The notes under the pieces were generated by a model that searched no databases, had not been told where the DNA came from, and saw nothing but the letters and a program-made list of their open reading frames with translations. A stretch of DNA of 38,552 bases from assembly GCA_003142915.1 (NCBI GenBank), contig PLNZ01000273.1, positions 1-38,552 of the forward strand, given 5' to 3'. Shown piece after piece: positions 8,605 through 38,229 of this stretch. The stretch is from Ignavibacteriales bacterium. GTDB lineage: Bacteria > Bacteroidota > Ignavibacteria > Ignavibacteriales > Ignavibacteriaceae. Every line of letters starts with the position of its first letter. The first letter of the stretch is position 1. A program made the translations under genes and the position numbers.

Positions 8605-8617
8605 GTCTTCTTAAATT

Positions 8618-10196: not shown

Positions 10197-10200
10197 TTAA

Positions 10201-10590: not shown

Positions 10591-10594
10591 AACT

Positions 10595-11368: not shown

Positions 11369-11374
11369 ACAACA

Positions 11375-11410: not shown

Positions 11411-11535
11411 GTCCTGAACAGAACTTGACCATGCAGTGATTGCCAAGACATATCGAATACTGTAATATTGTTCTTCTTATTTTTCTAATTCACACGACGA
11501 CAAACATCGACCTCATATTTATGGTTAGTTTTTCA

Positions 11536-11564
11536 TTGACATACAAAAATGATTTCCCTAAACT
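11536..11564 (+). promoter_or_regulatory. Candidate promoter TTGACA-N17-TAAACT
   Basis: Hexamers read directly, about 55 nt upstream of the 11619 ATG. Confidence 0.4.
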
Positions 11565-11618
11565 ACCTTTCGGTAAAAGCTAATTCTTGTTACCAATAAA
11601 CTTCAGGAATTGAATATC

Positions 11619-12548
11619 ATGAAAATGAGCAAAGTTTATGTGGCCTTGATGCTGGCTAGTCTTGCTTCGGGAGTTAGTGCACATGCCGATACTTACGGTA
11701 TGACGCAAACTCTTCCAAACAATCCATCTATGACGCAAACTCTTCCAAACACCAATCCATCGCCAATGCATAATCCCAGTAGTGTCCAAGTTACTGGACG
11801 CACGGGTATCGGTCATGCCAGTAGTGGTGTAAACGATGGGGGTATCGTCTATGTCAGTCCTGGACACAACTTCACTGTAGCTTCTGGCGGCAACACACCC
11901 GATGCCATGAACAGCATATTCGACAAGTCCTCTCAAACATCATGGTTTGCCTTTGCAAGTGGCATAGCATCAATCTTAGGACTAATGTTCACTTTGTACG
12001 GAACACAAATTAGAATGATACCATTTTCCTTGTATAGGTCATGCGTTTGGAATCGAGTCTTGCTAATATCCATTGGCATTGGCATCCTTGTTTTTGCAGG
12101 CATCAAATTTTACACTCAGACGGAGCCACCAGGACTCCCTCCGCTAAGCTGTCTATTTATGTTCTTGCATGGCGTGAATAATTTTTATACAGATATAGAT
12201 GGGAACAATGGAACAAACCTTTGGGCTATCATATTCGCCATAGGTGCGGTGATATCAACATGTGGTTTCTTTTACAACCCAATAAAACTATGCAAGTCAG
12301 TCCTGCGTCGGGAACATGATGCGTTGTTAGAATATAGAAAAACTCAGTTGTCATCTGTCCTTAACAGACAAAACTATGAAAACTTGAAGAGCCATGAAAA
12401 GCATCTGTATGACGATCTTAATGCTTTTCACGTTGAACTTCAAACAAGACTGATAGATACAATCTACGGGCAAAGCCTTATGCCAACTTATAGTCGCAGG
12501 ATGAAAAGCCATATTTGGCCTAACAAGCATATCGACGAGACGGACTAA
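11619..12548 (+). CDS. Secreted/multi-pass membrane protein with short tandem repeat
   Basis: Signal-peptide-like MKMSKVYVALMLASLASGVSAHA. Perfect 22-nt direct repeat (11700-11721 and 11730-11751) encoding MTQTLPN twice. Several hydrophobic spans. AGGAA lies 9 nt upstream of ATG 11619. Confidence 0.6.
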   Translation: MKMSKVYVALMLASLASGVSAHADTYGMTQTLPNNPSMTQTLPNTNPSPMHNPSSVQVTGRTGIGHASSGVNDGGIVYVSPGHNFTVASGGNTPDAMNSIFDKSSQTSWFAFASGIASILGLMFTLYGTQIRMIPFSLYRSCVWNRVLLISIGIGILVFAGIKFYTQTEPPGLPPLSCLFMFLHGVNNFYTDIDGNNGTNLWAIIFAIGAVISTCGFFYNPIKLCKSVLRREHDALLEYRKTQLSSVLNRQNYENLKSHEKHLYDDLNAFHVELQTRLIDTIYGQSLMPTYSRRMKSHIWPNKHIDETD

Positions 12549-12637
12549 CGCACAGCCTACCACACGTAACATTGATCAAAATATTTTTATTCGCATTTCG
12601 CTTTGCTCAAAAATCTATTTTATCATATAATTAATTT

Positions 12638-12750
12638 ACTACCCAAATCAAATTAATCTCCGATTTTTTTATCAACATCGTTGTCCTAAACGGACAGTCT
12701 GCCAATGATGTTGATCTTCGGAGAAACTGATTTGGGTAGTCAGACTGTCC
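12638..12750. repeat. Nested inverted repeats upstream of the recombinase gene (candidate att or regulatory site)
   Basis: A 12638-12650 pairs with A' 12728-12740 (13 bp). B 12657-12663 pairs with B' 12718-12724. C 12671-12679 pairs with C' 12707-12715. D GGACAGTCTG (12692-12701, in the loop) pairs with D' CAGACTGTCC (12741-12750), giving mutually exclusive folds. Confidence 0.6.
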
Positions 12751-12775
12751 TTTTAAGTTGTTAAAAAACAAAAAT

Positions 12776-14362
12776 ATGAAAGGAATAATTTATGTAAGAG
12801 TATCAAGCGAAGAACAAGTCAAAGGCACATCCTTGGAAAATCAGGATGAGCTTTGCCGTGCCTATTGTAAAAATAAGGGCATTGAGGTTTTAGGTATTTA
12901 TCGCGAAGAAGGAGCCTCAGCTAAAACAGCCCAGCGAGCCGAGTTTTTACGATCCATTGAATTCTGCCGGAAGAACAAAGGCAAGGTTGATGCTTTTGTA
13001 GTCTATAAAGTGGATCGGTTTGCCAGGAACACCGAAGATCATTTTTTCGTTAGAAAAATGCTAATTGAATACGGAGTGACTTTGCATTCCGTAACTGAAC
13101 CCATCGGCAACAATCCGGCAGAGAAATTTATTGAAACTGTTTTAGCCGGAAGCGCCGAATTTGACAATGCCGTCAGAGCTCAAAGAAGCGTGAGTGGAAT
13201 GATAGCCAAAATCAATCAGGGCATAACTCCTTTCAGACCGCCTATTGGCTATGAATGCCAACATGCAAGAAAAAGAGGCGAAAAGAAACTTGTAGCCGAT
13301 AAACCGGATACGCAAATATTCCCTATCATTCAAAAGGCATTACAAGAATTTTCCAAAGGAATATATACGCAAGTAGATATGATCCGGCTTTTAGATAAGC
13401 TGGGCTTAAGCAAAATCAGAGGCCAAAAAACAAGTCCGCAGTTAGTCAGTAAAATTTTCGTTAAGTATCTTAAATATTATGCTGGCATCATCGTGAATCC
13501 CTGGACTAACGAAGAAGTTCAAGGCATACACGAGTCGATGATAACCAAAGAAGAATATTTTAAAATACATTTTATCTTATCAGGAAAATCAAACAGAGTT
13601 AAAAGAATCAGGAAAAATCCTAATTTCCTATTGAGGCAAACTGTTAAATGCGGATGTTGCGGACAGCCATTAACTGGAAGCTGTTCAACTGGTAGAAACG
13701 AGAAATATTATTACTACCATTGTTTCAATAAAGAATGTTCAATGTACGGCAAGGCTATAAGCAAACAAAAACTGGAAGATGATTTTGTCGAATATCTGAA
13801 AGAGATTACACCAAAAAAAGATTTCTTGGATGTATTCAAGGCGGTTGTTTTGAGTTTGTGGAACAGACAAGATTTAGACTTAAAAACAGAAGCCCAAAAC
13901 TATGAAAAGCAATTGGCGGTATTAGATGGAAAGCGGAAAAGAATTTTTGAAATGCGGGAAGAAGGATCGTACACACCCGAAGAATTTAAAGAGCGAAAAG
14001 AAGAAATTGAAAATCAAATTATGGCAATAAAAATATCCTTGAATGAAACAAGGATTGATCAGTTTGATATTGAAGGCGTATTATCTTACGCAAATAATTT
14101 TATTGCCGATCTTGGTAGACAATGGCTTGATTTAGCCACTTCTCATTTGCGGTTCCAAAAAATGGTATTTCCGGAAGGAATTTCATATAAAAGAAATGAA
14201 GGATTTGGAACCGCCAAATTGGGGCTTATTTACGAACTTAACAGGACTTGTGGGACTGAAAAATCCCTTCTGGTGGTCTTTGCGTTCACCCATTGGAACC
14301 AGCTTTTGGCCGAATTGCGAGAATGGGAGAAAATAAAACAAGGTTTTGAACTTGTTTTATAG
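12776..14362 (+). CDS. Large serine recombinase
   Basis: Resolvase-type N-domain with catalytic-serine motif GIIYVRVSSEEQ and VDRFARN. Central recombinase domain. Cys-rich zinc ribbon CGCCGQPLTGSC...YYYYHCFNKEC. Coiled-coil-like segment. ATG 12776 preferred over TTG 12758. The last ~92 nt (14271-14362) are repeated downstream. Confidence 0.9.
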   Translation: MKGIIYVRVSSEEQVKGTSLENQDELCRAYCKNKGIEVLGIYREEGASAKTAQRAEFLRSIEFCRKNKGKVDAFVVYKVDRFARNTEDHFFVRKMLIEYGVTLHSVTEPIGNNPAEKFIETVLAGSAEFDNAVRAQRSVSGMIAKINQGITPFRPPIGYECQHARKRGEKKLVADKPDTQIFPIIQKALQEFSKGIYTQVDMIRLLDKLGLSKIRGQKTSPQLVSKIFVKYLKYYAGIIVNPWTNEEVQGIHESMITKEEYFKIHFILSGKSNRVKRIRKNPNFLLRQTVKCGCCGQPLTGSCSTGRNEKYYYYHCFNKECSMYGKAISKQKLEDDFVEYLKEITPKKDFLDVFKAVVLSLWNRQDLDLKTEAQNYEKQLAVLDGKRKRIFEMREEGSYTPEEFKERKEEIENQIMAIKISLNETRIDQFDIEGVLSYANNFIADLGRQWLDLATSHLRFQKMVFPEGISYKRNEGFGTAKLGLIYELNRTCGTEKSLLVVFAFTHWNQLLAELREWEKIKQGFELVL

Positions 14363-25219: not shown

Positions 25220-26314
25220 TTATCCTTTTGAAACCTTTCTATATTTCGTGCTTCTACCAAGCCCGATTCTTTCTATTTTTTTCAGTTTAAGTAATACTTC
25301 CAATGCCTGTTTGACGGTCGGTCGCGGAATTTTTGTTTCACGGGCAATTTCTCCTGTTCCAGCTGTATTAACATGTTCAAAAAAATCCCAGACTATAAGT
25401 TGTTTTTCTGATAATATTTTCTCTATATTTTCTTTCGACAAAAATTCAATCGCCGTTTTGGATTGCTGCAATAAAATTGTAAAAAAGAAATTGAGCCACG
25501 GAGCAACATCTTCCTTTTTAGTGTGAAAAGTCTTCTGGCTGCGCCTGAGCGCGAGATAATACTCTGCCTTGTTTTCTTCTATGAGTTTTTCGTGGGAAAC
25601 ATAAGGCATATAAAGATAGCCGCTTTGCAACAATAGCAAGTTTGTCAGAATCCTGGAAATTCTACCGTTGCCATCCTGAAAAGGATGAATTTTTAAAAAT
25701 TCAACTAAAAAATTGGCAATCACCAGCAACGGATGATATTTTTTTTGAGCTAACAATAGATTGGTTGATTCTACAAGTTCCATCATTTCTTTCGATGTAA
25801 GATGAGGAGGAGTTGGATTAAAAATTATTCCAACTTCCTTGCCTTGATTGTCATAGGCCACAACTTTATTTTCGCCGAACTTGTATTCACCCAGATGTCT
25901 TTGGTCTTTGTCGGAATATTTTAGAAGCTCCTTATGAAAATGCTTGATTGAGCTTTCACTAAATTTCAAATTTTTCCATGAATTAAAAATGTTTTCCAAA
26001 AGTTCATAATAACCTCTAACTTCTTGTTTGTCTCGATCAGCAAATTTTTGAATTTTTATGCCGCGCATCACTTTCTCAATATCTTCATCTGAAAGCTGCG
26101 CCCCTTCAATGCGAGTGGAGGCACCAGTCGAGGTTATTAAAACAGAACGTTTAAGACGTCCGAGAACTTGCGGATTTAGCTGAGCGCCTGTTATCCAACT
26201 TCCTTTTAATTCATCAATTTTGGCAATCTTTGAAATTATTTCCGTTGGAATTATATTGAGCCGTTTTGAAAATTTCTTTTCAATAACACTGCTTTTTTTC
26301 AATTTTTTGTTCAT
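25220..26314 (-). CDS. Fic-family protein (AMPylase/toxin-type) with C-terminal wHTH
   Basis: 364 aa with the canonical Fic motif HPFQDGNGRISR. Confidence 0.9.
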   Translation of the reverse strand: MNKKLKKSSVIEKKFSKRLNIIPTEIISKIAKIDELKGSWITGAQLNPQVLGRLKRSVLITSTGASTRIEGAQLSDEDIEKVMRGIKIQKFADRDKQEVRGYYELLENIFNSWKNLKFSESSIKHFHKELLKYSDKDQRHLGEYKFGENKVVAYDNQGKEVGIIFNPTPPHLTSKEMMELVESTNLLLAQKKYHPLLVIANFLVEFLKIHPFQDGNGRISRILTNLLLLQSGYLYMPYVSHEKLIEENKAEYYLALRRSQKTFHTKKEDVAPWLNFFFTILLQQSKTAIEFLSKENIEKILSEKQLIVWDFFEHVNTAGTGEIARETKIPRPTVKQALEVLLKLKKIERIGLGRSTKYRKVSKG

Positions 26315-26688: not shown

Positions 26689-26892
26689 AAGAGAATTTAT
26701 AGTCAGTATCCCGCACAAATCGATAACACTATTGAGGGTGAATGACTCCCATCAGAATCGTTTATGATTTCCGTGCTAATTATGATATGTGGAATAAAAT
26801 TTGGATTTTGTATTCTATAAAGTGATGAGGATAACAGATAAATATTTGAACTTTTGTAACACTATTGAGAAAATAAGCCGTAACCTGTTGCA

Positions 26893-27993
26893 TTGGGTAA
26901 AATAGGTCGACGCGTCTTAAAAATTTTATGTTATCCCAAATATAAATTTGCTGAAGTGAGCTTAATGTTAGACAATTCTGAATTAGATCATCAAAAGGAG
27001 TTCTATTTTCAATGGCATATTACAAATAGATGCAATCTGAGATGTAAGCACTGTTATCATGATAATTATCAAGAAATTGGACTCGATACATCGCAATTAT
27101 TAAAGATTGGTGAACATTTATGTGACGCAATTAAAAATTGGGGCAAAATTGGATCTTTTAGCATTACTGGCGGAGAGCCTTTTATGAGAAAAGATGATGT
27201 TATGCAATTACTCGATTTTTTTGATAATAGAGAAGAGATAGGGCATATTGATATTTTAACAAATGGAACATTAATTGATCAGGGAATTATAAACGATTTA
27301 AAACGATTTAAAAAAATTAGAAGAATCCAGTTTTCTTTAGAAGGACTTGAAGAAACTAATGATAAAATACGAGGCAACGGTTCATTTGATGTGATTACTA
27401 GTAAAATTAAACAACTAACAATGTGCGGATTAAAAACAAGTGTTATGATGACCATTGCAAAATATAATAAAGATGAGGTCATCCCCTTGGCGGAAAAGTT
27501 AGCAGAAGTCGGTGTTGAATCTTTTATTCTGGACAGATTTATCCCCGAAGGACAAAGTGCGGATATGAAAAAATCAGTCTTAGATTCGACTGAAATCAAA
27601 GAAATATATCAAAAATGTTATTCCTATTTCAAAAATACATTAAAGCCAAGAATGCTTTTATACAGAACTCTATTTTGTCTGCTAAATCCTGAAGACAAAC
27701 ATATTGGTGCAATATGCTCTGTCGGTAACAATGCTTTAACAATAATGCCTAATGGTGATGTTTTCCCATGTAGGCGTTTACCCATTAAATTAGGAAATAT
27801 ACTAAAAAATAGTGTTTATGAAATTTGGTATACTCATCCACTCCTGTGGGAGTTCCGAGATCCGAATAATTTAAAAGGAAAATGCAAACATTGCGAATAT
27901 ATTCCTGTTTGCAGAGGATGCAGGGCTTTTGCCTATGCCATAACTGGTGATTATTTTGAAGCTGATCCTCAATGTTGGAAGGACAATAATTGA
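26893..27993 (+). CDS. Radical SAM/SPASM-domain peptide maturase
   Basis: WHITNRCNLRCKHCY (CxxxCxxC). Cys-rich SPASM-like C-terminus CSVGNN...CRRLP...CKHCEYIPVCRGCRAFAY. The start may be ATG 26965 rather than TTG 26893. Confidence 0.85.
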   Translation: MGKIGRRVLKILCYPKYKFAEVSLMLDNSELDHQKEFYFQWHITNRCNLRCKHCYHDNYQEIGLDTSQLLKIGEHLCDAIKNWGKIGSFSITGGEPFMRKDDVMQLLDFFDNREEIGHIDILTNGTLIDQGIINDLKRFKKIRRIQFSLEGLEETNDKIRGNGSFDVITSKIKQLTMCGLKTSVMMTIAKYNKDEVIPLAEKLAEVGVESFILDRFIPEGQSADMKKSVLDSTEIKEIYQKCYSYFKNTLKPRMLLYRTLFCLLNPEDKHIGAICSVGNNALTIMPNGDVFPCRRLPIKLGNILKNSVYEIWYTHPLLWEFRDPNNLKGKCKHCEYIPVCRGCRAFAYAITGDYFEADPQCWKDNN

Positions 27994-28262
27994 ATATTGA
28001 ACTGTCTGAAGAAGTTTATTTAAAACATGATGAGGGAACTGATTGTTATTATCTTTTCTGTATCAGTAGCGGTAAGCATTTCAGCTTGAATAAAACAAGT
28101 TACAAGATTCTAATGCTTTTAAAAATGGGCAAAGATAAACAAGAGATTGCAGAATTTTTATCAAACCATTATAATATTACTTTAGATCTCTGTAAAAAAG
28201 ATATAGATGAGCTAATAGATGTTTTGCAAGAAAATAACTTATTGACAAATAAGGAGATTTAA
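27990..28262 (+). CDS. PqqD-like peptide chaperone (RiPP recognition element)
   Basis: 90 aa. CYYLFCISSGKHFSLNKTSYKILMLLKMGKDKQEIAEFLSNHYNITLDLCKKDIDELIDVLQENNLL fits the PqqD pattern. The TTG start overlaps the upstream TGA, with GGAAGG upstream. Confidence 0.7.
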   Translation: MNIELSEEVYLKHDEGTDCYYLFCISSGKHFSLNKTSYKILMLLKMGKDKQEIAEFLSNHYNITLDLCKKDIDELIDVLQENNLLTNKEI

Positions 28263-28266
28263 ATTC

Positions 28267-28428
28267 ATGAAAAAACTTAAAGAAGGAAAGATTAAAACAA
28301 AGGACACCGATTATATCAAACCAGCAATTAAGCTGGAGAAAAACATGACATTCATGTTTGAAGCAATAAAAAAATCAAATTCTAAATTAACTTGCAGACA
28401 ATGCTCATCTTGCCATGGCTGCAGATAA
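28267..28428 (+). CDS. Candidate RiPP precursor peptide (53 aa, C-terminal CxxCxxCxxC)
   Basis: Not in the ORF track (below 60 aa). AAGGAG lies 10 nt upstream of ATG 28267. MKKLKEGKIKTKDTDYIKPAIKLEKNMTFMFEAIKKSNSKLTCRQCSSCHGCR has a Lys-rich leader and four Cys at residues 43/46/49/52. It sits 4 nt after the PqqD-like gene. Confidence 0.65.
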   Translation: MKKLKEGKIKTKDTDYIKPAIKLEKNMTFMFEAIKKSNSKLTCRQCSSCHGCR

Positions 28429-29254
28429 CAATCAAAGAGTAAATAAACTATACTCTGCATTAATTAATATAATCTATGACTTTCTTGACCGCCGCTTGCC
28501 ATTAAGAAGAATTATCATTGTTGCTTCACTTTTAAAAGACTGTAATATTGTAATACCAACTTGCGATAAAATTCAAAACCGTCTTGTTAGAAAACAAAAT
28601 GATGACGGTGGTTGGGTTGATTGTGAAGACACTGCATGGTCGCTTTTTTATCTTTCAGACATAGAAAAATATGAAAATAAATTTAAAAATGGAATGCTAT
28701 GGCTTGAATCTGAAAGAAATAAAAAAAAAGGATGGGGCTTTTGCAAAAGAGATCAACCTTGTATTCCTATCACTGCGCAAATCTTGTACTTTCTTTCACA
28801 TTATCATTTAAATCATGAGGCATGTAAGTGGCTAGAAAAGGAATGGAGGAAAGATATTTTATCCCCATTCAAGCTCAATTACAAAGCTGCATGGTATTTA
28901 CTTGCTTATAAGAATCACGTGCACACGAAATTGCTTTCTGAAGAATTATTTAATGAAACCATTCATTACTTAGTTAAAGAGCAGAGAAATGATGGAGGTT
29001 GGGGGCCTTGGAAAAATCATCCAGCGCAAAGTGATTGCTTTATTACAGGTATCTGTATGGGCGCTCTTGCTCTTTCATATTCACTGAATAAAGATAAAAT
29101 AATTATTAAGTCTTTAAGAAAAGGGATTCCTTGGGTTGAGAATAATCAACTAAATAATGGTTTATTCCCAACGCACTATATTGAAGAAGGTTCGTCTTGG
29201 ATATTTTGGGGATGGAGCAAAACAATGGATGTGCTTAATGGATGCAGTTTATGA
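28415..29254 (+). CDS. Prenyltransferase/squalene-cyclase-repeat (alpha-alpha toroid) protein
   Basis: Repeated QxxDGGW-type motifs: QNDDGGWVDCEDTAWSL, KKKGWGFC, QRNDGGWGPWKNHP. The start overlaps the last 5 codons of the precursor ORF. Confidence 0.6.
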   Translation: MAADNNQRVNKLYSALINIIYDFLDRRLPLRRIIIVASLLKDCNIVIPTCDKIQNRLVRKQNDDGGWVDCEDTAWSLFYLSDIEKYENKFKNGMLWLESERNKKKGWGFCKRDQPCIPITAQILYFLSHYHLNHEACKWLEKEWRKDILSPFKLNYKAAWYLLAYKNHVHTKLLSEELFNETIHYLVKEQRNDGGWGPWKNHPAQSDCFITGICMGALALSYSLNKDKIIIKSLRKGIPWVENNQLNNGLFPTHYIEEGSSWIFWGWSKTMDVLNGCSL

Positions 29255-30336
29255 AGATATTATTGATTGGTAAATATCCACCATTGCAGGGTGGAATATC
29301 ATCAAAAACCTACTGGTTATACAGATATCTTGAGAAGAAAGGTTTTGAATTCAGAATAGTAACCGTGGCAGCAGATGCTTACACTATAAATAAATACCAT
29401 AACGATCCAAATGTAACCGTCGTAAATGAGAAAAAATCACCTTGGCATATACCGGAAACAGATCTACTGGATGATAGATTAATTAATGAAGCCAAAAAGA
29501 TAGCGCTTGATTTCTGCCCAGACTTGATTGAAACAAACTACTTATGGCCTTTCTGTAAAGATGCACTTTTGATTTCTAAAATATTAAAAAAACCACTACT
29601 TATCCGACATGCCGGAAGTGATATTATAAAATTTAGCAAGGATAAGGAATACCTCGAGATTATGGAAAGCTATTTCAGTCATGCATCTGCAATAGCTACA
29701 AACAGTACGTCTGTTAAACTTGTTAATAAATTATGTGGCTTCGATAGCAAGACTTTTCTTATGCAACGATACATACCTGATCCGTCAATTTTCAAACATA
29801 TCGAATCTGAAAAGCCTTTTCATATATTATTTACAGGAAAAATTAATTATCATTGGCAACACAAGGGCTTATTGTTATTGCTGGAGATCATTAAAGAACA
29901 TAAGCTTAAGGCTCTTTTTGTTATTGGCGGGCTTTATAAGAACAAATTGCTGGAGGAAATATCTTTTAATGGCATTGATGAGCTCATTCATATCTCGGAG
30001 TTTGTACCACCCGAAAACATGCCTCTGATTTATAACTCATGTAAATTTGTATGGGCATGGGAAGAAGAAGGGAACGTAGAAGACTTCCCCAATATTATTT
30101 GGGAGTCACTTTACAGTGGTACTTCTTGTATCGTAAACTCTGCATTTGCCGCAAAACTAAGAAATGAAAAAATACCAGAATGTTTTTCTAGTCTCATTAG
30201 AAATTTTGATGCACATAACATCATGGGATTTGAATTCACTATTCAAAAAAAAGATGTTGAATGTAACCATATAAAAGATGATTTATTTAACAAATACGTT
30301 TATGATAATATCAATCTTTATACCAACATAACATAG
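29242..30336 (+). CDS. GT-B fold glycosyltransferase (GT4-like)
   Basis: MKILLIGKYPPLQGGISSKTYWL N-terminus and a C-terminal EEEGNVEDFPNIIWESLYSGTSCIV (E-x7-E-like) region. Alternative ATG at 29251. Confidence 0.7.
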   Translation: MQFMKILLIGKYPPLQGGISSKTYWLYRYLEKKGFEFRIVTVAADAYTINKYHNDPNVTVVNEKKSPWHIPETDLLDDRLINEAKKIALDFCPDLIETNYLWPFCKDALLISKILKKPLLIRHAGSDIIKFSKDKEYLEIMESYFSHASAIATNSTSVKLVNKLCGFDSKTFLMQRYIPDPSIFKHIESEKPFHILFTGKINYHWQHKGLLLLLEIIKEHKLKALFVIGGLYKNKLLEEISFNGIDELIHISEFVPPENMPLIYNSCKFVWAWEEEGNVEDFPNIIWESLYSGTSCIVNSAFAAKLRNEKIPECFSSLIRNFDAHNIMGFEFTIQKKDVECNHIKDDLFNKYVYDNINLYTNIT

Positions 30337-30350
30337 AAATGTAGATAATT

Positions 30351-31535
30351 ATGATCTTATCACATATTTTCACTAATGACATTGGACCGGGTATGTTGTT
30401 TAATGTACCTGATCACCCTGTAAATGTTATGTTAGACATCACGAATGATTGTAACAATCGGTGCATTTATTGTTATAACCCTGATAGCTCAATTGGCCAT
30501 GGTGGCTCGCCTGATCCAAATAATCTAAAAAAAATTGTGTCCATTCTCGGATTGTCAGGTACAAAGGAGATTCTCTATTTAGGCGGTGAGCCGTTTTCTT
30601 TACCTGCTTTCATTGAAATATTAGAGACAGGTAGGAAATACAATATTTTCCAACGCACTGTCAGTAATGGCAGCTTCTTAACAGATACGTATATATGTCG
30701 TGATTTTAAAGAGAAAGGCCTTGATGAGGTTGGAATATCTTTTCACTCTTCTGATGAAGCAGTCCATGATAGGATTACCAACAGAAAGGGTTCATTTCAA
30801 GAGGCTGTATTAAGTCTCCAAAATTGCATATTAGCTGGAATATCGTCATTCATTCAATACTCACCTAATCGATTTAATTCATCCCGCGATATTCTGAAGC
30901 TTGCAGAATATATAAAAATACTTTTCGGTGACGAGGTTAAATATTTCGATATCAACAGATTGCTGCCTATAGGACGAGGACAGAAGGCACAATCCGTATT
31001 TCTTGAAAACGATGAATGGTTTGAGTTTCTAGTACAAGCTGCAATGCTAAGAAGATATGGGTTTGATGTTCATGCAGAATTGACACCTTTCTGCTGGATA
31101 AATCATAAAGCAAAAGAAAACAACATTTCAGCTAATACGCTAAATGAAGTCTACAAAATGAATCGTGGTTGCTATATGTGGATTGCGCAACTGGCTCTCG
31201 ATTATAATGGCGGAATTAAATTCTGCCCTACCGGTCCAGCAGTTGGTCCGTCGATAATTGATGTTAAATGGCCTAGCTTTTGGAAGACATGGGAGGAGTT
31301 TAAGAGGTACCGTAGCTTTTTATGGAATGATAAATGTGTTGATTTCGATACAAAAAATGCTTGTTCTTTTTTTTATCAGTGTCTTGGAGGATGTAAATAT
31401 TCAAAAGGTACGCCTTATCAAATGGATCATTACACAATAGGTCTACAAAATAATTTAAATGAGGAGTATAAAAATGAAAAAATCATCAAAGACAAACAGA
31501 GTTATAATTCTGAAGGGGTCACCTGGTGTCGGTAA
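30351..31535 (+). CDS. Second radical SAM/SPASM-like enzyme
   Basis: DITNDCNNRCIYCYN (CxxxCxxC). C-terminal Cys cluster CYMW...CPTGP...CVDFDTKNACSFFYQCLGGCKY. Confidence 0.8.
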   Translation: MILSHIFTNDIGPGMLFNVPDHPVNVMLDITNDCNNRCIYCYNPDSSIGHGGSPDPNNLKKIVSILGLSGTKEILYLGGEPFSLPAFIEILETGRKYNIFQRTVSNGSFLTDTYICRDFKEKGLDEVGISFHSSDEAVHDRITNRKGSFQEAVLSLQNCILAGISSFIQYSPNRFNSSRDILKLAEYIKILFGDEVKYFDINRLLPIGRGQKAQSVFLENDEWFEFLVQAAMLRRYGFDVHAELTPFCWINHKAKENNISANTLNEVYKMNRGCYMWIAQLALDYNGGIKFCPTGPAVGPSIIDVKWPSFWKTWEEFKRYRSFLWNDKCVDFDTKNACSFFYQCLGGCKYSKGTPYQMDHYTIGLQNNLNEEYKNEKIIKDKQSYNSEGVTWCR

Positions 31536-32019
31536 GTCATTTACAGCGCGCAAACTTGTTTCGCAACTCAAAAGTAAGAAAATCGCACTTATTTCCATTG
31601 ATGAATTACTCCACATCGATCAGCGCAATCTTTGTGAAGACAAACTGAAACTAGCTAAGTATAATGCAGCAATTCTTACGCGAAGTTTTCTAAGTGATAA
31701 ATTTGATATCATTATTGAATATACATTTGATATTCCGCAGCACTTAGAATTTCTGATTGACAAAATTAAGCATAGCCATGTGGACATATTACCCAAGTCG
31801 GATATTCATATTTTTCATCTTACGGCAAAGTTTACTGAAGTAAAGAAACGCAATAAGACAAGAAGAGATGGTACGGATCCCTTGCCGGATATTATCCTTG
31901 AGAAACTATATAAATCTTGCGAGAAAACTGCCGGAAAGGTTAAAGATGAAATCATAATAGAATCTGACAAAATATCATTAAAGCAAGTCGTCGATCAGAT
32001 CATGGGCAACTTGAAATGA
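31474..32019 (+). CDS. P-loop kinase/AAA-type NTPase (small-molecule or nucleotide kinase-like)
   Basis: Walker A ILKGSPGVGKSF. About 180 aa. GAGGAG lies 7 nt upstream of ATG 31474. Overlaps the rSAM 3-prime end by 62 nt. Confidence 0.65.
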   Translation: MKKSSKTNRVIILKGSPGVGKSFTARKLVSQLKSKKIALISIDELLHIDQRNLCEDKLKLAKYNAAILTRSFLSDKFDIIIEYTFDIPQHLEFLIDKIKHSHVDILPKSDIHIFHLTAKFTEVKKRNKTRRDGTDPLPDIILEKLYKSCEKTAGKVKDEIIIESDKISLKQVVDQIMGNLK

Positions 32020-32879
32020 TAATTGATCTACATCTGCACAGTCATTATAGCCCTGATGGCAGACATTCCATTCCGCAGCTTCTTGATTTGTTTTCAGAGG
32101 GGGACATTGCTGGATTAACAGATCATGAGACAATAGGTGGATGGCCGGAGTTTGAGAAAGAAGCAAATAAAAGGGGCATTAAGCCTGTTTTGGGTATTGA
32201 ATGGTTCGCGCCAGGTTGCCATATATTAGCCTATTTCTTTGATGGTGTACCCAACGCATTCTATCAATATATGAAAGCACGTCGCGCAACTGAAAAAAGC
32301 TGTATGCATACTCTGTATGAAGAATTCAGAAAGGATAACCCCCGGCTTAAACCCTATAATGAAGCCCTTAAACTGCGAGCCCACCCTGAAAATATTCTCG
32401 GCCTTCCTGGATTTGCGGAAGCAGTCTCAAAAGCATCTGACATTGCACAAGAAGACGCAGAAGATATTGTGAGAAGACAAAAAAGAGCAATGCCCGATGG
32501 CACACGCCCTGAACCTTTTAATCCAGAAGAAATAATAAAGAACATTAATGGCTGGAATGCTGTGCCAGTTTTAGCACACCCTTATAGGTGTTCACAAGGC
32601 AAGGATGGTCGAGAAAAAAAAGAAACTGTAGAAAATAAAATTAGAGAACTCGCTAATGCAGGAATAAAAGGTGTTGATGTATACTCTTGGAACAGCAACC
32701 AAGAAGAGCTGGAACATCTTTTGGGACTTTGTGATGAATTAAAGCTTGCCCCTATTGTAGGGTCAGATTTCCATCACGCAAATAAAGGCTTGCGTCCTCA
32801 AGATCTGAATGCATTGGATAGAAAACTTATACAGAGGATATTTGAATGGATCGAAAATTTGGCAGCGCCTACTCTTTAA
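32016..32879 (+). CDS. PHP-family metal-dependent phosphoesterase
   Basis: IDLHLHSHYSPDG, GLTDHETIGG and VLAHPYR motifs. ATGA start/stop overlap with the kinase gene. Confidence 0.8.
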   Translation: MIIDLHLHSHYSPDGRHSIPQLLDLFSEGDIAGLTDHETIGGWPEFEKEANKRGIKPVLGIEWFAPGCHILAYFFDGVPNAFYQYMKARRATEKSCMHTLYEEFRKDNPRLKPYNEALKLRAHPENILGLPGFAEAVSKASDIAQEDAEDIVRRQKRAMPDGTRPEPFNPEEIIKNINGWNAVPVLAHPYRCSQGKDGREKKETVENKIRELANAGIKGVDVYSWNSNQEELEHLLGLCDELKLAPIVGSDFHHANKGLRPQDLNALDRKLIQRIFEWIENLAAPTL

Positions 32880-35593
32880 GAGATTTCGCATTTCCGCAAG
32901 AAAATCGGAAAGACATTTCGGACTGCATTAATCTAATTATGAATACCCTGTCCTTCAGAAAGCTAGCTGGTAAGACCCAAGTAATATTATCATTGGCTGG
33001 TCCGGATGTTAGGACACGACTTACCCACACTATCGAGGTTTCAAGAATTGCAAAAGAAATATGCAGTCGACTTGATTTAAATGCTGATCTTGCAGAAGCC
33101 ATTGCCCTAGCTCATGATATAGGACATACTCCTTTTGGTCATGTGGGGGAAAGAACGCTTAGGGAAATCATGTGTGGTTGCAATACTCTAGGAGGTAAAA
33201 TCAGTGATTGTGATTTTGCAAACTCTGGATTTAAGCATAATTTACAAAGTTTCCGCGTATTGACAGATTTGGAGCAGATATGTACAAAAAATGATATTTG
33301 GTCGCCCATATTATGGGGTGCTTTAAACCATACAAATATGACGTGGTCAAAATCATATTCAGGTATTGATTATGAGATATTAATATCCTCTAGCCATTGT
33401 AATTGGGTTCATGTATGTTATTACGATGAAAAAAAGGAATGTAAACGTAATATACAGAAAAAGAAAAGCAAAATAATAGCTTCTGAGAATAATTCAATTT
33501 GTAAGCCTTGGTACTGCGCAAATCTTCCAATTGTAGATAATAAGGATGATGTCACAGAGAACGTTCTGTATAATGGAGAAACAACCCAAGACTATTTAAA
33601 AAAGGAACCAATTAGAAGAGAATTTGTTGAGAAGATATATTGTTCTCATCAATGCTATATGGCAAAACTCTGGAAATACAAACAAGCAAATTTTAAGAGC
33701 TATCGTCAATACCATTATTTATATGATCATCCATTTCCTAATAGCTTCTATGCTGGCGGTGTGCATGACTTCTTTGCCAATAAAATTAATGGTAAAAATA
33801 GTAAATCAGATTATGTTACAGTGGAAGCACAAATTGTCTGTCAGGCAGATGAAATTGCACAAAGGCAACAAGACCTCGAAGATGGAATTAGCAAAGGATT
33901 ACTATCTTTCAGTGATACGAAAGAACATATTAGAAAATTACTAAAAATATTTGATTCTGAAAACCAAAAAATCAAAAAACTTTCAAAAGAACTTACTGAA
34001 ATAGTGAAGCCAGATAAGCTAGGCAAACTGCTAGTTGACTTCTATATCGAATTGATTGTAGCTGGATCTATGAAATATTTCGCTTATTTTGGCAAAGAAA
34101 TAAATCCTCAGTTGATAAATATATATAGCTTGCTCAATATTCTCTATTATATGTCAGACAACCTAAGTCATAAAAGCAAATGGCTTATAGAGGAGCTGAA
34201 ATCACCTGTTCTTAATAATACTGAAAAAAAACATCTTACGAATAAGATTATTGGGAGTCGCGTATTCAGGCCTAATTACGATATTGGATATCTATATCTT
34301 ACGATCTATGATCATCTGGAAAATCAAATTAAGATATACGGATATTCAAAGAATTTGTCTAAAATCCTTTGTTTATTCATATCTCACGTAAAAATAAATA
34401 AAAAAAGAGCAAAAGCGAAGAATAAATTGGAAAGTATTGAGAAAAACATTAAAGATATTATCAGTAGCGAATTATATATATCAAAAATAAAAAAAATTAT
34501 AAGCCGATTAATGAAGATAAAACCGTCAGATTCCAATAAGCTTTCATGTAAAGATATCGCATGCGACTATGTTAAAAGTAGTTCAAGCATACTGAATTAC
34601 CATTTTATCCTTGCATTAGATAATATGCGGGATTATTTGAAGAATGCTTATACAAAAGAAAGTAAAGTATTTTTCCAAAATAAGGATAAAACACCATGGA
34701 AAAATCTTGGTACGTTGAATTTGCCCCAGTTTTACACATTATCAAAAATTCATAAAAAGTGTTTCATAGGGGAAAATACAATTATATGTGCCAGAGATCT
34801 TACAAAATTTGCCTATGGAAATGATGGATATAAAACAAGGCAGGCATTTCTAAGATGGAAGGAAATTTTGGGCAATGATGGTCATAAAGTACTAAATAAT
34901 TATGTGCAATTTGTTTTTAAAAACGATGAAAAACAAGCAAAGATAGATGATTTTAAAGAAAAACAAAAAAACACGATATTAAAAAGTGAATCTGTGGAAA
35001 AAAATGACGGTAAAGCAGGTTACATCTTAACGAGATTATTTAAAGCTTATATATCCAACTCACACCAATTACCAGATATGGGTCTCAAAATGATATTTAA
35101 CACCCTTCAGAATGAAAAAATATGTGATAAATTAAAACAAAAAGAAAATGAAAAATTTGAAGACATATTAAGTAATTTGAAAAAGACTTTACCAGAAAGT
35201 AGTCAAACAAACGAGAAAATGGCTAAAATTAAATCCGCCAAATTTATGAAAATTACTAAAGATGAATTTGATGATCTTAAGGAAAATGTTTCCAGTGAAA
35301 TTAAAGCAGCTTTAGACAATAGATGGAAGCTATATGAATTCATTCGGCAAATGAAAAAAGATAAAAGTAAATTGCAGAAATACTTGAACAGCGATAAAGA
35401 TAAGGACATCGGGAGTTTAAATGAATATTTAGGTAAATTCAGAGCCATTCTTGACAATCCCTTTCTTAATCCCACCCCATTCTGGAAAAGTATACTTACT
35501 CGGGGGATATGTGATTATATTGCCGGATTAACTGACCAAGAGGCCATAAATGAATACGAAAAACTTTATGCCGGCATCATGGAATTAGTTTAA
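32846..35593 (+). CDS. Giant HD-domain dGTPase-like triphosphohydrolase (915 aa)
   Basis: FRKLAGKTQV, RLTHTIEVSRIAKEI, LAHDIGHTPFGHVGE, QADEIAQRQQDLEDGI and C-terminal ICDYIAGLTDQEAINEYEKLY match dGTPase/SAMHD1-family landmarks. Several hundred extra K/N-rich residues lie between them. Confidence 0.8.
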   Translation: MDRKFGSAYSLRDFAFPQENRKDISDCINLIMNTLSFRKLAGKTQVILSLAGPDVRTRLTHTIEVSRIAKEICSRLDLNADLAEAIALAHDIGHTPFGHVGERTLREIMCGCNTLGGKISDCDFANSGFKHNLQSFRVLTDLEQICTKNDIWSPILWGALNHTNMTWSKSYSGIDYEILISSSHCNWVHVCYYDEKKECKRNIQKKKSKIIASENNSICKPWYCANLPIVDNKDDVTENVLYNGETTQDYLKKEPIRREFVEKIYCSHQCYMAKLWKYKQANFKSYRQYHYLYDHPFPNSFYAGGVHDFFANKINGKNSKSDYVTVEAQIVCQADEIAQRQQDLEDGISKGLLSFSDTKEHIRKLLKIFDSENQKIKKLSKELTEIVKPDKLGKLLVDFYIELIVAGSMKYFAYFGKEINPQLINIYSLLNILYYMSDNLSHKSKWLIEELKSPVLNNTEKKHLTNKIIGSRVFRPNYDIGYLYLTIYDHLENQIKIYGYSKNLSKILCLFISHVKINKKRAKAKNKLESIEKNIKDIISSELYISKIKKIISRLMKIKPSDSNKLSCKDIACDYVKSSSSILNYHFILALDNMRDYLKNAYTKESKVFFQNKDKTPWKNLGTLNLPQFYTLSKIHKKCFIGENTIICARDLTKFAYGNDGYKTRQAFLRWKEILGNDGHKVLNNYVQFVFKNDEKQAKIDDFKEKQKNTILKSESVEKNDGKAGYILTRLFKAYISNSHQLPDMGLKMIFNTLQNEKICDKLKQKENEKFEDILSNLKKTLPESSQTNEKMAKIKSAKFMKITKDEFDDLKENVSSEIKAALDNRWKLYEFIRQMKKDKSKLQKYLNSDKDKDIGSLNEYLGKFRAILDNPFLNPTPFWKSILTRGICDYIAGLTDQEAINEYEKLYAGIMELV

Positions 35594-37329
35594 TGTGCGG
35601 CATATGTGGATTATGGGGCAATAATAACCCTGAAAAAACGACCGTAATGTTAAATGCAATAAGCCATCGTGGTCCCGATGGCAGCAACATTGCGATTTAC
35701 CCATGGGGTGCTCTTGGGTTTTGCAGGTTAGATATCTTTGGCGCTTCTGGCATTAATCAGCCGGCACTTTCCAGTGATGGGAAAACAGCAATAGTTTTTA
35801 ATGGCGAGATTTACAATTTCAAAGAACTCATATCAAAACTTCCTGCCTATAAGCAAATCAATGATGAAGCCTCTCTTATTTTAGAATTATATCTATTGTT
35901 TGGTGAACAATGCTTCACAATGCTTAAAGGTATGTTCGCAATCGCGATCATGGCCCCCGACAAAATCTTTTTAGCGCGAGACGCTGTTGGTATTAAACCT
36001 CTTGTCTACTATACCGCTAATAATTGTATATATTTTGCCTCAGAGATAAAAGCATTGCTCAGAATAAAAGATGACATGATTGAAATAGATGATGAGGCTT
36101 TAGCTGAAACAGCGGTTTTTGGTTTTATATTTGATCTGGAAAAAACGATGTTTAAAGGGATTAAACAGATACGTCCGGGATGTTTCATCAAATATCAAGA
36201 TAACAAAATAAGCACTGAGCGGTTTCATACTCTAAAGTCTTCATATTATGATGATAAGATTGCAGAGAAAATATTCATCGATGATTTCAGCAACCTTATG
36301 GATAAATCAACCCAATGTCAGATTAATCATTCCAAGCATCCTCAAGCAATCTATCTTTCCGGTGGTATTGATTCTGCATTGATGACATATTTCATGCGGA
36401 AAAATTCAGCGGATACTATTTATACATATAATTTATTCGATTCAGAAAACAACGAAGACAGGCGCTATGCCGCTTTGGTCTCCAAAGCTTTTAAAACAGA
36501 CCATGTTGAACACAAAACAAATGTGGCGGAATGCTTAAATTTTTTTGACCATTATCTCTATCATTATGAGTCACTGGTAACTGATGGTATTTTTAATGTA
36601 CTTGGTAGTCTTGCCTTTCATTTATTGTCATATCAGATTAGTAAGAAATTTAAAGTAGCTTACTGTGGTGAAGGCGCGGATGAGCTCTTTGGCGGTTACT
36701 ATTGGATGCATACACATCCTCTTGGTTTTGCCGACAGAATCCGTATGAGATCAAAAAAAGTCAATTATGGGAAAACAAAGATCAATGAATATATAATGGA
36801 TAAATTTCCGCCAGATGATTCTAAAGAAAAAGAAATGCAGAGAGAAATATTCGATATCTTGATGGGTCCAGGATTAACAAACTGCCACCTGTGGAGCGTT
36901 GATCGATCAAGCTCCGCATTCTCTTTTGAAGCAAGACCATTTTATTTATATGATGATATTAGAGATTGGGCACTCTCTCTACCTATTGAAAATAAAGTAA
37001 AGGATAAAAATAACACAAAATTAGTCTTGAAAAGATATGCCCATAAATCCGACTGTCAACTATTAAATGATATTGCTTCGCGAAAAAAAATTGGAATGCC
37101 GGCAGCCTTGTCTACCGCTATGAACAAACTTATTTCATATTCGGAAGATAATTATAGAAGTATCAAGGATACGCGCAATTTACCACACAAAGCATATTCT
37201 TCTTTTTTCAACACTGATTTAGAAAAAATGCTTTTCGATAGGTTTTATAACATATTCGTTAGTAATAGAGGGAAAATGATATACGAGGGCACAGATGCTA
37301 CGGTACCCGTGTTGCAAACCCTGATCTAA
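35593..37329 (+). CDS. Asparagine synthetase B-like glutamine amidotransferase/adenylating enzyme
   Basis: N-terminal nucleophile MCGICG and PP-loop YLSGGIDSALM. TAATG overlap with the upstream gene. Confidence 0.85.
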   Translation: MCGICGLWGNNNPEKTTVMLNAISHRGPDGSNIAIYPWGALGFCRLDIFGASGINQPALSSDGKTAIVFNGEIYNFKELISKLPAYKQINDEASLILELYLLFGEQCFTMLKGMFAIAIMAPDKIFLARDAVGIKPLVYYTANNCIYFASEIKALLRIKDDMIEIDDEALAETAVFGFIFDLEKTMFKGIKQIRPGCFIKYQDNKISTERFHTLKSSYYDDKIAEKIFIDDFSNLMDKSTQCQINHSKHPQAIYLSGGIDSALMTYFMRKNSADTIYTYNLFDSENNEDRRYAALVSKAFKTDHVEHKTNVAECLNFFDHYLYHYESLVTDGIFNVLGSLAFHLLSYQISKKFKVAYCGEGADELFGGYYWMHTHPLGFADRIRMRSKKVNYGKTKINEYIMDKFPPDDSKEKEMQREIFDILMGPGLTNCHLWSVDRSSSAFSFEARPFYLYDDIRDWALSLPIENKVKDKNNTKLVLKRYAHKSDCQLLNDIASRKKIGMPAALSTAMNKLISYSEDNYRSIKDTRNLPHKAYSSFFNTDLEKMLFDRFYNIFVSNRGKMIYEGTDATVPVLQTLI

Positions 37330-37604: not shown

Positions 37605-38006
37605 TTACAAAACTGAATTTATCAGGATGACATTCACACCTTTTTTTTTGTACAGACAAAGATGTGGATCAACGGTATAAATTATCGCGGCGTTATATTT
37701 TATAAAGCCGGAGAGTATTAAGGAGTCAGACATATGAAGACCGAGGCCATGAGATAGATTGGCAGCTGTCATAAATATTTCCAAATCGTCTAGCCAAGCA
37801 ATGTTGCAAATATTCTTTATAGCTTCCAATAAAGTATCAACGGAATGACTATCAATTGAACCTTTAAGGGCAAGCTTTTTCAGCTCATACAAAGAAATGC
37901 AGGAGACAACGGAGTCCTCCCCCTCCAATATTTCATTCCATACTTCCGAAGTCTGCTTATTGCCTTTGATAAGCTCGATAAAAAAGCCGGTATCAATACC
38001 TATCAT
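37605..38006 (-). CDS. vapC: PIN-domain toxin (VapC-like)
   Basis: 133 aa. MIGIDTGFFIE N-terminal acidic motif, later LYELKK and HMSDSLIL. 14-nt overlap with the upstream antitoxin gene. Confidence 0.75.
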   Translation of the reverse strand: MIGIDTGFFIELIKGNKQTSEVWNEILEGEDSVVSCISLYELKKLALKGSIDSHSVDTLLEAIKNICNIAWLDDLEIFMTAANLSHGLGLHMSDSLILSGFIKYNAAIIYTVDPHLCLYKKKGVNVILINSVL

Positions 38007-38229
38007 GCGACTCGGCCCTCATGGTTTCTATGTCTTTATGAATGTCTTTGGAAACACGCGCCTTGCCGATAAGACCTAAAACTTTCATTCCACTTTCCCT
38101 TTTCTTTTTTAGAAGAACGTAATTCTGGACAGCATCAGTTATCACTGAAGATACAGACTTTTTTTCATTGTCTGCGAAAGTTTTAACGACCCTTCCAATG
38201 TTGTCGGGAATGTTTGCCGTTATTCTCAT
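37993..38229 (-). CDS. vapB: Antitoxin (RHH/AbrB-like, VapB-type)
   Basis: 78 aa. MRITANIPDNIGRVVKTFADNEKKSVSSVITDAVQNY. GGAGATGG SD upstream. Operonic with the PIN gene. Confidence 0.65.
   Translation of the reverse strand: MRITANIPDNIGRVVKTFADNEKKSVSSVITDAVQNYVLLKKKRESGMKVLGLIGKARVSKDIHKDIETMRAESHDRY

Follow-up and report, generated by a model that had tools for sequence, protein, structure and literature searches.

The stretch of DNA analyzed here (referred to below as the window) comprises 38,552 nucleotides (nt) of the forward strand of contig PLNZ01000273.1 of an Ignavibacteriales bacterium (assembly GCA_003142915.1). Its inspection revealed ten co-directional genes on the plus strand (at about 26965-37329), whose ends overlap or nearly touch. 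In order, these encode (i) a radical S-adenosylmethionine (SAM) protein (rSAM1), (ii) a PqqD-family protein, (iii) a short Cys-rich precursor peptide, (iv) an (alpha/alpha)6 toroid protein, (v) a GT4-type glycosyltransferase, (vi) a second radical SAM protein (rSAM2), (vii) a P-loop kinase, (viii) a PHP phosphoesterase, (ix) an HD phosphohydrolase and (x) an AsnB-type amidotransferase. This region is one conserved, horizontally mobile ten-gene operon (the cassette), which is found in many uncultured anaerobes, usually beside anti-virus genes. An earlier note on the same DNA had placed ten plus-strand open reading frames (ORFs) here. All of them are present where it had put them, its domain list was agreed by Pfam and NCBIfam profile searches, and the seven gene junctions that it listed were all correct on re-check.

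The rSAM1 gene (26965-27993) encodes a protein with Pfam Radical_SAM and SPASM domains. Its start is probably the ATG at 26965, on which homologs and three of six gene calls agree, rather than the TTG at 26893, to which the frame can be extended. It overlaps (TTGA, 27990-27993) the gene of the PqqD-family peptide-binding protein (27990-28262; Pfam PqqD, E = 3e-10), a predicted recognition element (RRE) of peptides that are ribosomally synthesized and then post-translationally modified (RiPPs). A gap of 4 nt (28263-28266) separates the latter from the 53-amino-acid (aa) precursor ORF (28267-28428), which has a perfect AAGGAG Shine-Dalgarno sequence (28251-28256) located 10 nt 5' of its ATG. The precursor ORF in turn shares 14 nt (28415-28428) with the gene of the single-domain toroid protein (28415-29254), whose product gives a weak match to SQHop_cyclase/prenyltransferase repeats. 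The toroid frame overlaps that of the GT4-type (GT-B) glycosyltransferase (29251-30336) by 13 nt (29242-29254) when the alternative start at 29242 is used. Gene callers and homologs point to 29251 as the probable start, which would turn this junction into an ATGA overlap.

The remaining genes are packed just as tightly. A 14-nt gap precedes the rSAM2 gene (30351-31535; Pfam Radical_SAM, with a Cys-rich C-terminal SPASM/twitch-like region), which overlaps the kinase gene (31474-32019; Walker A motif GSPGVGKS; alternative start 31459) by 62-77 nt; neither of these two junctions was recorded in the earlier note. The kinase gene is joined by an ATGA (32016) to the gene of the PHP-family metal-dependent phosphoesterase (32016-32879; Pfam PHP, E = 2.5e-11). 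This is followed, with an overlap of 34 nt (32846-32879), by the gene of the 915-aa dGTPase-like HD phosphohydrolase (32846-35593), and a TAATG (35593) links the latter to the gene of the glutamine-hydrolysing PP-loop amidotransferase AsnB (35593-37329).

The gene neighborhoods of six diverged HD homologs and of two loci from a genome scan were examined. The window shares its ten genes, in unchanged order, with loci L009, L011, L014, L095 and L096, and also with L007, where the sequence is cut at the end; L097 is devoid of the kinase and PHP genes, and L016 of the rSAM2, kinase and PHP genes. The flanks are unrelated at every site, and the HD proteins of different loci share 39-52% identity. 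All nine long HD homologs with examined context lie inside a cassette. Since the ten-gene order is kept in diverged loci with unrelated flanks, the linkage goes beyond chance. The earlier note had drawn attention to the association of kinase, PHP and HD genes with peptide genes, and this holds in a kept order in at least seven independent, diverged loci with different flanks. It had also named a lack of any such linkage in other genomes as grounds for abandoning the idea; the RiPP-type genes and the kinase, PHP, HD and AsnB genes are in fact linked elsewhere.

Comparison of the window with L009 revealed a sharply bounded exception to an otherwise close relationship. Nucleotide identity amounts to 90.0% over 26862-32204 and 88.7% over 35438-37281. 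In the segment between them (32205-35437, plus strand), which covers most of the PHP gene and nearly all of the HD gene, the only patch alignable with the corresponding part of L009 (9357-12361) is 533 nt long and 69.6% identical. At the protein level, the PHP and HD products of the two loci are 46-47% identical, and those of the other eight genes 85-93%. A different pattern was found with L014, where the PHP protein is 72% identical to that of the window, the HD protein 48% and the backbone gene products 42-69%. From these diverging identities it follows that the PHP and HD alleles move independently of the backbone. The sequence comparison thus indicates that alleles of these two genes are exchanged, at sharp recombination breakpoints, in an operon that is otherwise roughly 90% identical.

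The block of 90% nucleotide identity with L009 begins at 26862, about 100 nt before the rSAM1 ATG, and the interval 26862-26964 (plus strand) is therefore a candidate conserved leader or promoter region of the operon. No Rfam family matched this interval, Rfam and tRNA scans of the whole window gave no match, and the counts returned by promoter and terminator scans were at chance level. A MarR gene and two ABC exporter genes located further upstream were considered as members of the cluster and rejected, because homology begins at 26862 and these genes are absent at the other loci.

The wider family was surveyed by tblastn and all-against-all clustering in the first 45 of 80 loci found with an rSAM1 profile (rSAM1 about 40% or more identical to that of the window). 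The universal core of the family consists of rSAM1, PqqD, precursor and toroid, which AsnB and the glycosyltransferase almost always accompany, the exception being the Firmicutes. Four branches may be distinguished by what they carry beyond this core. Branch A (the window, L009, L011, L014, L095 and L096) has the glycosyltransferase, rSAM2, kinase, PHP, HD and AsnB. Branch B (L018, L020, L023-L027, L031 and L039) encodes a 974-1180-aa protein with a metallo-beta-lactamase domain, which in L018 and L020 is preceded by an N6/N4 DNA methylase. Branch C (L022, L026 and the archaeal loci L035, L036, L041 and L047) encodes a 583-628-aa protein with no Pfam match. Branch D, from gut Firmicutes including Bengtsoniella intestinalis BP47G and Lachnoclostridium An131, has neither AsnB nor the glycosyltransferase; its members carry an amidohydrolase-GNAT fusion, an AsnRS/AsnA-like class II core, a B12-type radical SAM protein and a CxxCxGxG protein. 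AsnB is cut down to its PP-loop domain in five archaeal loci (L035, L037, L039, L041 and L047) and in the bacterial locus L019.

In the clustering, the contents of this variable position were mutually exclusive between branches. The genes of rSAM2, kinase, PHP and HD are accordingly a four-gene insert in a variable slot that lies between core genes, and the other occupants of the slot are, as judged from their sequences, large and mostly metal-dependent phosphoesterases. The earlier note had divided the operon into a RiPP half and a nucleotide half, with AsnB in the second. This division did not survive the survey: clades that have no rSAM2, kinase, PHP or HD keep AsnB, the glycosyltransferase and the toroid together with the peptide genes, and these three are therefore assigned to the peptide machinery. 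No homology among the slot proteins (HD, the metallo-beta-lactamase giant, the ~590-aa protein and c22) was detected with hidden Markov model (HMM) searches or hhalign, and those of the branches other than A gave no match to a PADLOC defence family.

Several features of individual slot arrangements are worth recording. In L020 (10402-14278) and L018 (6279-10095), a type II-like N6/N4 DNA methylase and a metallo-beta-lactamase-domain protein of ~1050 aa are encoded between the precursor and toroid genes, forming a restriction-modification-like pair within a peptide-maturation operon. The ~590-aa protein of branch C (L026 11483-13234, L036 7519-9297 and relatives) has invariant H...H, HD, H, H and D positions; this HD-like pattern is a visual observation, for which Pfam, a PDB profile search and hhalign gave no statistical support. 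In L098, which contains the core together with a B12 radical SAM gene and an rSAM2-like gene, a convergent operon (8820-11973, minus strand) encodes a kinase, a PHP protein and an ATPase of the sigma-54-activator/AAA+ type, the last in the place of the HD protein. Kinase and PHP thus occur together in two different arrangements and appear to travel as a pair. Genes of B12-binding radical SAM proteins are located beside or inside the cassettes of several branches (L014 6954-8423, minus strand; L096 2403-3872, minus strand; L098 6253-7710; L048 4914-6419), and two flanking proteins, presumably these B12 radical SAM proteins, match the PADLOC candidate PDC-M51A at E of about 7e-21.

The variant of cultured gut Firmicutes is carried by B. 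intestinalis BP47G (L057 9680-15863; accession no. NZ_CP133584, at about 3.269-3.290 Mb) and Lachnoclostridium sp. An131 (L051). It comprises genes for a helix-turn-helix regulator, rSAM1, PqqD, a 40-aa precursor ending in WCFGCTNCNCN, the amidohydrolase-GNAT fusion, the AsnRS/AsnA-like core, the toroid, the B12-type radical SAM protein and the small CxxCxGxG protein. A different adenylating enzyme, of the AsnRS/AsnA type, is thus found in place of AsnB.

The precursor is the most distinctive component of the core. In the window it ends in CRQCSSCHGCR, and in 31 non-Firmicute bacterial and archaeal loci the last eleven codons encode C-x-Q-C-S-[S/G]-C-H-[G/S]-C-[R/K/S] followed by the stop codon. 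This core includes four invariant Cys residues and one invariant Ser, and its sole invariant carboxylate is the C-terminal one; synonymous changes are abundant at nearly every one of its codons in the same loci. Firmicute precursors end instead in W-C-F-G-C-[T/S]-N-C-N-C-N. Across the family the precursors are 40-56 aa long, with the leader motifs Y-x-K-P ... M-x-F, and they are more conserved than PqqD, the toroid, the glycosyltransferase, PHP and HD. No Pfam or NCBIfam model matched the peptide. Because the core is invariant despite heavy synonymous change, the codon pattern indicates that the ORF is translated and is under strong purifying selection. The small Cys-rich ORF of the earlier note is, on these grounds and with the Shine-Dalgarno sequence upstream, a real gene.

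The rSAM1 proteins of other cassettes are 64-93% identical to that of the window. Among the structures in the PDB, rSAM1 is best matched by two peptide maturases, CteB and SkfB, and by MoaA and PqqE. Its best NCBIfam model is TIGR04340 (ACGX), on which it scores 192.6 bits against a cutoff of 400, and the other curated maturase models are likewise far below their cutoffs (MftC, 105 vs 265; PqqE, 74 vs 381; PapB, 88 vs 340; AlbA, 84 vs 850). The PqqD gene adjoins that of rSAM1 in every locus, and the best NCBIfam models of its product are lasso chaperones. The earlier note had described this front end as classic sactipeptide/ranthipeptide logic. The combination of a radical SAM/SPASM protein, PqqD and a Cys-rich precursor stands, and membership of a curated sactipeptide or ranthipeptide maturase subfamily does not, so that the label itself is not borne out.

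The toroid protein was modelled with AlphaFold2 (AF2) as a single (alpha/alpha)6 barrel of 279 aa (predicted local distance difference test score, pLDDT, 94.9). Foldseek ranks class II terpene-cyclase domains first among its matches (E = 3e-8, TMq about 0.67-0.72), ahead of GH105 hydrolases and A2M thioester domains. The invariant residues include R32, W75, R112, Y156, K157, Q190, H202, H254 and E257, and D64 and D113 are near-invariant. No conserved Cys, DxDD motif or prenyltransferase Zn site was found in the alignment and model. As a single barrel with neither DxDD nor conserved Cys, the protein is outside the definition of the class II terpene cyclases and prenyltransferases. The suggestion of a lipidated peptide, raised in the earlier note, is thereby left with no lipidation enzyme to carry it. 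A LanC-like cyclase was also considered and rejected, since a conserved Cys/His Zn site is missing and the best 50 fold matches include no LanC structure. The family is rare: it forms 160 clusters at 90% identity, and among 1.84 billion proteins there are 53 representatives at E <= 1e-30 and the toroid profile retrieved about 50-80 clusters at 50% identity.

The glycosyltransferase, which is kept with the peptide core in the non-Firmicute branches, gives weak Pfam matches only (Glycos_transf_1, Glyco_trans_4_2 and Glyco_transf_4). In clades without the HD module, too, AsnB is found together with the peptide core. It starts with MCGICG, and the Met-Cys glutaminase nucleophile is conserved in the long forms. 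With this Cys Ntn glutaminase domain and a PP-loop domain, it scores above the cutoff of the asparagine synthase model TIGR01536 (270.3 vs 267.1 bits), a class assignment that does not imply the substrate. It also scores 206 bits on an exopolysaccharide-type amidotransferase model, and only 138.5 on the lasso cyclase model NF033535 (cutoff 525).

Among the slot proteins of the window, rSAM2 matches Pfam Radical_SAM, and the Pfam SPASM model is silent despite the C-terminal Cys motif. Its homologs form 64 clusters at 45% identity or higher, after which identity drops sharply; we therefore regard rSAM2 as specific to the cassette. The best PDB matches are viperins, over core residues 19-177 only. 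It is not a prokaryotic viperin, as it scores 44.7 on NF038283 (cutoff 180) and the alignments are confined to those residues. The kinase gives weak matches to AAA_33, KTI12, Zeta_toxin and PSTK. Of the PDB entries, 3e0f ("putative metal-dependent phosphoesterase") and 2yb1 ("amidohydrolase") come nearest to the PHP protein. Among NCBIfam models, NF041577 (3',5'-nucleoside bisphosphate phosphatase) fits it best, with a score far below the cutoff. In one HD homolog, P0016, PHP and HD are fused into a single protein.

The 915-aa protein contains HD and HD_assoc domains with an H...HD...D metal site, and can be placed in the dGTP triphosphohydrolase subfamily TIGR01353 (158.4 bits, cutoff 152.35); it also scores 192 bits on the PADLOC dGTPase model. 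It does not belong to the single-gene anti-phage dGTPases: the score on NF041026 is 121.9 (cutoff 400), the protein is 915 aa long and its gene lies inside the operon at every examined locus. In the AF2 model (pLDDT 86; predicted template modelling score, pTM, 0.89), all matches among the best 50 listed by Foldseek are deoxynucleoside triphosphate (dNTP) triphosphohydrolases; the anti-phage Shewanella dGTPase 9p8w is one of them, and the dNTPase CloA 9p8s another. The metal-site residues H61, H90 and D91 are invariant in 48 homologs, as are seven Cys residues of an insert (C185, C191, C199, C219, C224, C266 and C270), and two to three further Cys, including C110 and C112, are near-invariant (residues 110-270). 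This Cys-rich insert suggests Zn or Fe-S sites not known in the dGTPase family. Hypervariable blocks (about 350-700 and 751-875) surround the intact metal site. The exact 915-aa protein was retrieved from 55 metagenome blocks, all representing the same locus. About 80 long homologs share 35-52% identity with it; below these come ordinary dGTPases of ~510 aa, which can be aligned over the N-terminal 15% only.

The surroundings of the cassette are consistent with mobility, and the window looks like the cargo of an integrative element. Its 6757-14362 segment encodes a BglII-like fragment, an ArdC-N protein, a primase zinc ribbon and a serine recombinase. Close by, outside the window (L002 16800-22748), lie genes for a transposase, a tyrosine integrase, an SLT lytic transglycosylase, a TraG-like coupling protein and a TrwC relaxase. 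The G+C content rises to 0.44-0.49 at 8-11 kb and 19-21 kb, compared with about 0.33 elsewhere. The cassette is directly flanked upstream by the gene of a Fic-domain protein (25220-26314, minus strand) and downstream by a PIN toxin gene accompanied by a small antitoxin-like ORF (37605-38229, minus strand). At the other end of the window, a co-directional block of four genes (259-6542, minus strand) encodes a 638-aa protein with a weak radical SAM match, a 512-aa HATPase_c_3 (MORC-like) ATPase, and 564- and 386-aa proteins that belong to no family; from its gene content, this block looks like another uncharacterised defence-type operon.

Comparable neighbors were found at other loci: type I restriction-modification and HEPN genes (L007); type III restriction-modification, AbiEii and NucS (L096); an integrase, deaminases, an MbcA/ParS pair and SoFic (L095); type I HsdR and helicases (L097); BrxL and an OLD-family nuclease (L045); and Eco57I/MmeI-type enzymes (L018 and L057). 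Integrases, ArdC and type IV secretion genes are also among the neighbors. A PADLOC scan of 85 flanking proteins identified type I, III, IV and IIG restriction enzymes, SoFic (two proteins) and several candidate-system proteins. No protease or exporter is conserved with the cassette in the gene content of the compared loci.

Taken as a whole, the sequence data suggest that the cassette is probably a new peptide-based conflict or biosynthetic system. Our tentative preference, which we place slightly below an even balance of probability, is that it constitutes an intracellular modified-peptide system coupled to swappable phosphohydrolase effectors and engaged in conflict with phages or other mobile elements. 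PqqD would bind the Y-x-K-P...M-x-F leader and present the C-terminal Cys-rich core to rSAM1, which would install one or more cross-links in it. The glycosyltransferase and AsnB may next modify the peptide, with the invariant Ser and the C-terminal carboxylate as candidate sites, the AsnB step being an ATP-dependent amidation or ligation. Given the lack of a conserved protease or exporter, the product is probably retained in the cell, where it may work with the phosphohydrolase module as a cofactor, activator or inhibitor. HD, as a putative dNTPase, would deplete or alter nucleotides, and rSAM2, the kinase and PHP would together modify nucleotides or process ends; in other branches the slot module may attack nucleic acid instead. 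The whole unit would act as a conflict system on islands and integrative elements.

This role is favored because of the effector-like modular replacement, the hypervariable HD protein, the island context and two precedents. Enzymes of the dGTPase family are known anti-phage effectors. Ophion is a validated defence system composed of a radical SAM protein (OpnA), a PHP protein (OpnB) and a phosphoribosyltransferase (PRTase; OpnC). Of the three ideas put forward in the earlier note, the defence module gains the most support, from island context, effector swapping and allele shuffling; a tailored peptide or a peptide-derived cofactor remain as alternatives. A bolder version of the conflict reading, which we consider rather unlikely, is that of a new prokaryotic immune system in which a ribosomally made peptide, cross-linked by a radical SAM protein, glycosylated and amidated, serves as a dedicated intracellular cofactor or switch for interchangeable metal-dependent phosphohydrolases, whose alleles are shuffled under pressure from phages or mobile elements. 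In the window these effectors would be the long dGTPase-like HD protein together with PHP and the kinase, and in other branches the metallo-beta-lactamase giants, accompanied or not by a methylase.

A number of observations weigh against a role in conflict. RiPP clusters are also mobile and patchy in distribution, and no component except HD matches a known defence family in PADLOC. The island context is supportive, not quantitative, since no background rate stands behind the neighbor counts and the argument is one of guilt by association. A direct link to phages did not emerge: in viral contigs, the rSAM1 profile retrieved only two distant radical SAM genes (27-32% identity) and no cassette, and tblastn with the toroid gave no match in annotated plasmid and phage collections. 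The peptide core is conserved to an extreme degree, which fits a cofactor equally well, and the glycosyltransferase, AsnB and the (alpha/alpha)6 barrel equally fit carbohydrate tailoring. The likeness of rSAM2 to viperin is limited to the generic core, and rSAM1 scores as well on pVip models. Finally, control of the hydrolase by the modified peptide is pure inference.

The strongest alternative, for which we see a substantial though still minority probability, is a biosynthetic one: the cassette would have no part in immunity and would make a heavily tailored RiPP or a peptide-derived cofactor. In such a pathway, rSAM1 and PqqD would cross-link the peptide, rSAM2 would perform a second modification, and the glycosyltransferase and AsnB would glycosylate and amidate it. 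The kinase, PHP and HD might supply or attach a nucleoside- or sugar-derived group (giving a peptidyl-nucleoside), or hydrolyse a toxic intermediate and so shield the producer. The set of radical SAM/SPASM protein, PqqD and conserved precursor parallels PQQ and mycofactocin, and the mycofactocin pathway also uses a glycosyltransferase. A precursor core that is invariant across bacteria and archaea resembles cofactor precursors, the SPASM-like Cys-rich tail of rSAM2 is typical of peptide or small-molecule maturases, and the 206-bit exopolysaccharide-type score of AsnB, the GT4 enzyme and the barrel fit sugar chemistry. Firmicutes swap AsnB for an AsnA/AsnRS-like adenylating enzyme and a GNAT-amidohydrolase fusion; because of this replacement, a step of carboxylate activation appears to be conserved, with a logic resembling that of microcin C. 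Four features of the family weigh against this reading: (i) there is no conserved leader protease, exporter or partner oxidoreductase, (ii) in place of the usual peptide-tailoring enzymes, the slot holds phosphohydrolases of large size, in some cases along with a DNA methylase, (iii) the alleles of PHP and HD are hypervariable and have been shuffled, as is seldom the case for biosynthetic enzymes whose substrate is invariant, and (iv) the loci are situated in defence islands or integrative elements.

A further reading, which we consider improbable, is that the cassette serves to modify or repair nucleic acids, by a logic like that of restriction-modification. The kinase, PHP, HD, glycosyltransferase, rSAM2 and AsnB would then act on DNA or RNA, in base hypermodification or end-healing, with the peptide as an accessory, e.g. 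a sulfur or metal carrier. The type II-like methylase encoded within the operon beside the metallo-beta-lactamase giant would fit this, but it is present in only two of about eight metallo-beta-lactamase loci. The P-loop kinase and phosphoesterase pair resembles polynucleotide kinase-phosphatase end-healing, and nucleotide phosphoesterases are the nearest to PHP. Known pathways of DNA hypermodification employ PP-loop enzymes and glycosyltransferases of the GT-B type. On the other hand, the universal genes of the family encode peptide machinery and not nucleic-acid enzymes, no DNA-binding, transglycosylase or ligase component was found, and AsnB keeps an asparagine-synthase-type profile above the cutoff. 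A chance meeting of a RiPP cluster with an unrelated nucleotide-metabolism operon is suggested by nothing more than the mixed domain content. It is refuted by the gene order, which is identical in seven or more independent, diverged loci whose flanks are unrelated, by the location of the core gene AsnB downstream of the inserted module, by the overlapping gene ends and by the PHP-HD fusion protein.

If the conflict reading is true, RiPP-type peptide chemistry would join the biochemical means of intracellular immunity, and dNTPase-type effectors would gain a new logic of regulation or cofactor use. On the biosynthetic reading, if true, the family would represent a new RiPP or cofactor class, with a core kept from Bacteroidota and Desulfobacterota to Methanoperedens and Bathyarchaeia and with unprecedented tailoring (PP-loop amidation, GT4, an (alpha/alpha)6 partner and nucleotide enzymes). 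The family is rare yet spans bacteria and archaea, and its cultured carriers among gut Firmicutes make it experimentally tractable.

Neither the precursor, the toroid family nor the system as such is described by a model in Pfam, NCBIfam or PADLOC, full-text literature searches with the core motifs and domain combinations found no description of it, and a paper reappraising the phosphorothioate machinery does not cover it. The earlier note had likewise not recognized the operon among described RiPP classes, and this agrees with the absence of any curated RiPP or defence model covering it. Partial likenesses to several known systems can nevertheless be pointed out. Lasso peptide clusters also combine a PqqD-family protein, an AsnB-fold enzyme and a short precursor, but in the cassette AsnB keeps its Met-Cys nucleophile and passes the asparagine-synthase model, radical SAM proteins are present, and there is no B2 protease gene among the ten.

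The slot module resembles two types of defence enzyme. With the anti-phage dGTPases (Dgt and Sp-dGTPase; CloA is a structurally related dNTPase), the HD protein shares the HD and HD_assoc domains and an intact H...HD...D site. It differs in its size, which at 915 aa is about twice that of the matched solved structures (376-505 aa), in having nine conserved Cys residues (seven of them invariant) in or near an insert, and in its hypervariable helical regions; moreover, in the examined loci it is never alone, being embedded in a peptide operon. The cassette is also similar in gene content to Ophion and viperin-kinase pairs, in that a radical SAM gene stands with genes for a PHP protein and a nucleotide-handling enzyme in defence-island surroundings. 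It differs in having no PRTase and in the SPASM-like tail of rSAM2, and its module is secondary to a core of peptide maturation.

It is in this core that the closest parallels are found. As in sactipeptide, ranthipeptide, PQQ and mycofactocin systems, a discrete PqqD stands beside a radical SAM/SPASM protein of ~340 aa and a short precursor with its conserved residues at the extreme C terminus. The PqqD-like RRE and the Cys-rich precursor beside the maturase are shared with sactipeptides and ranthipeptides, the glycosyltransferase with mycofactocin, and the strong conservation of the precursor core with PqqA and MftA. The cassette precursor differs from the latter two in ending in CHGCR, and not in the ...GVY of MftA or the E-x3-Y of PqqA, and the MftC and PqqE models remain under cutoff. 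More generally, when set against the systems of this type, the cassette has a new precursor motif and no peptidase or partner dehydrogenases, and it includes an obligatory (alpha/alpha)6 toroid, AsnB and operonic phosphohydrolases. On the basis of its gene content, it may best be described as a variant of radical SAM/SPASM and PqqD peptide maturation with an unprecedented, conserved coupling to nucleotide hydrolases.

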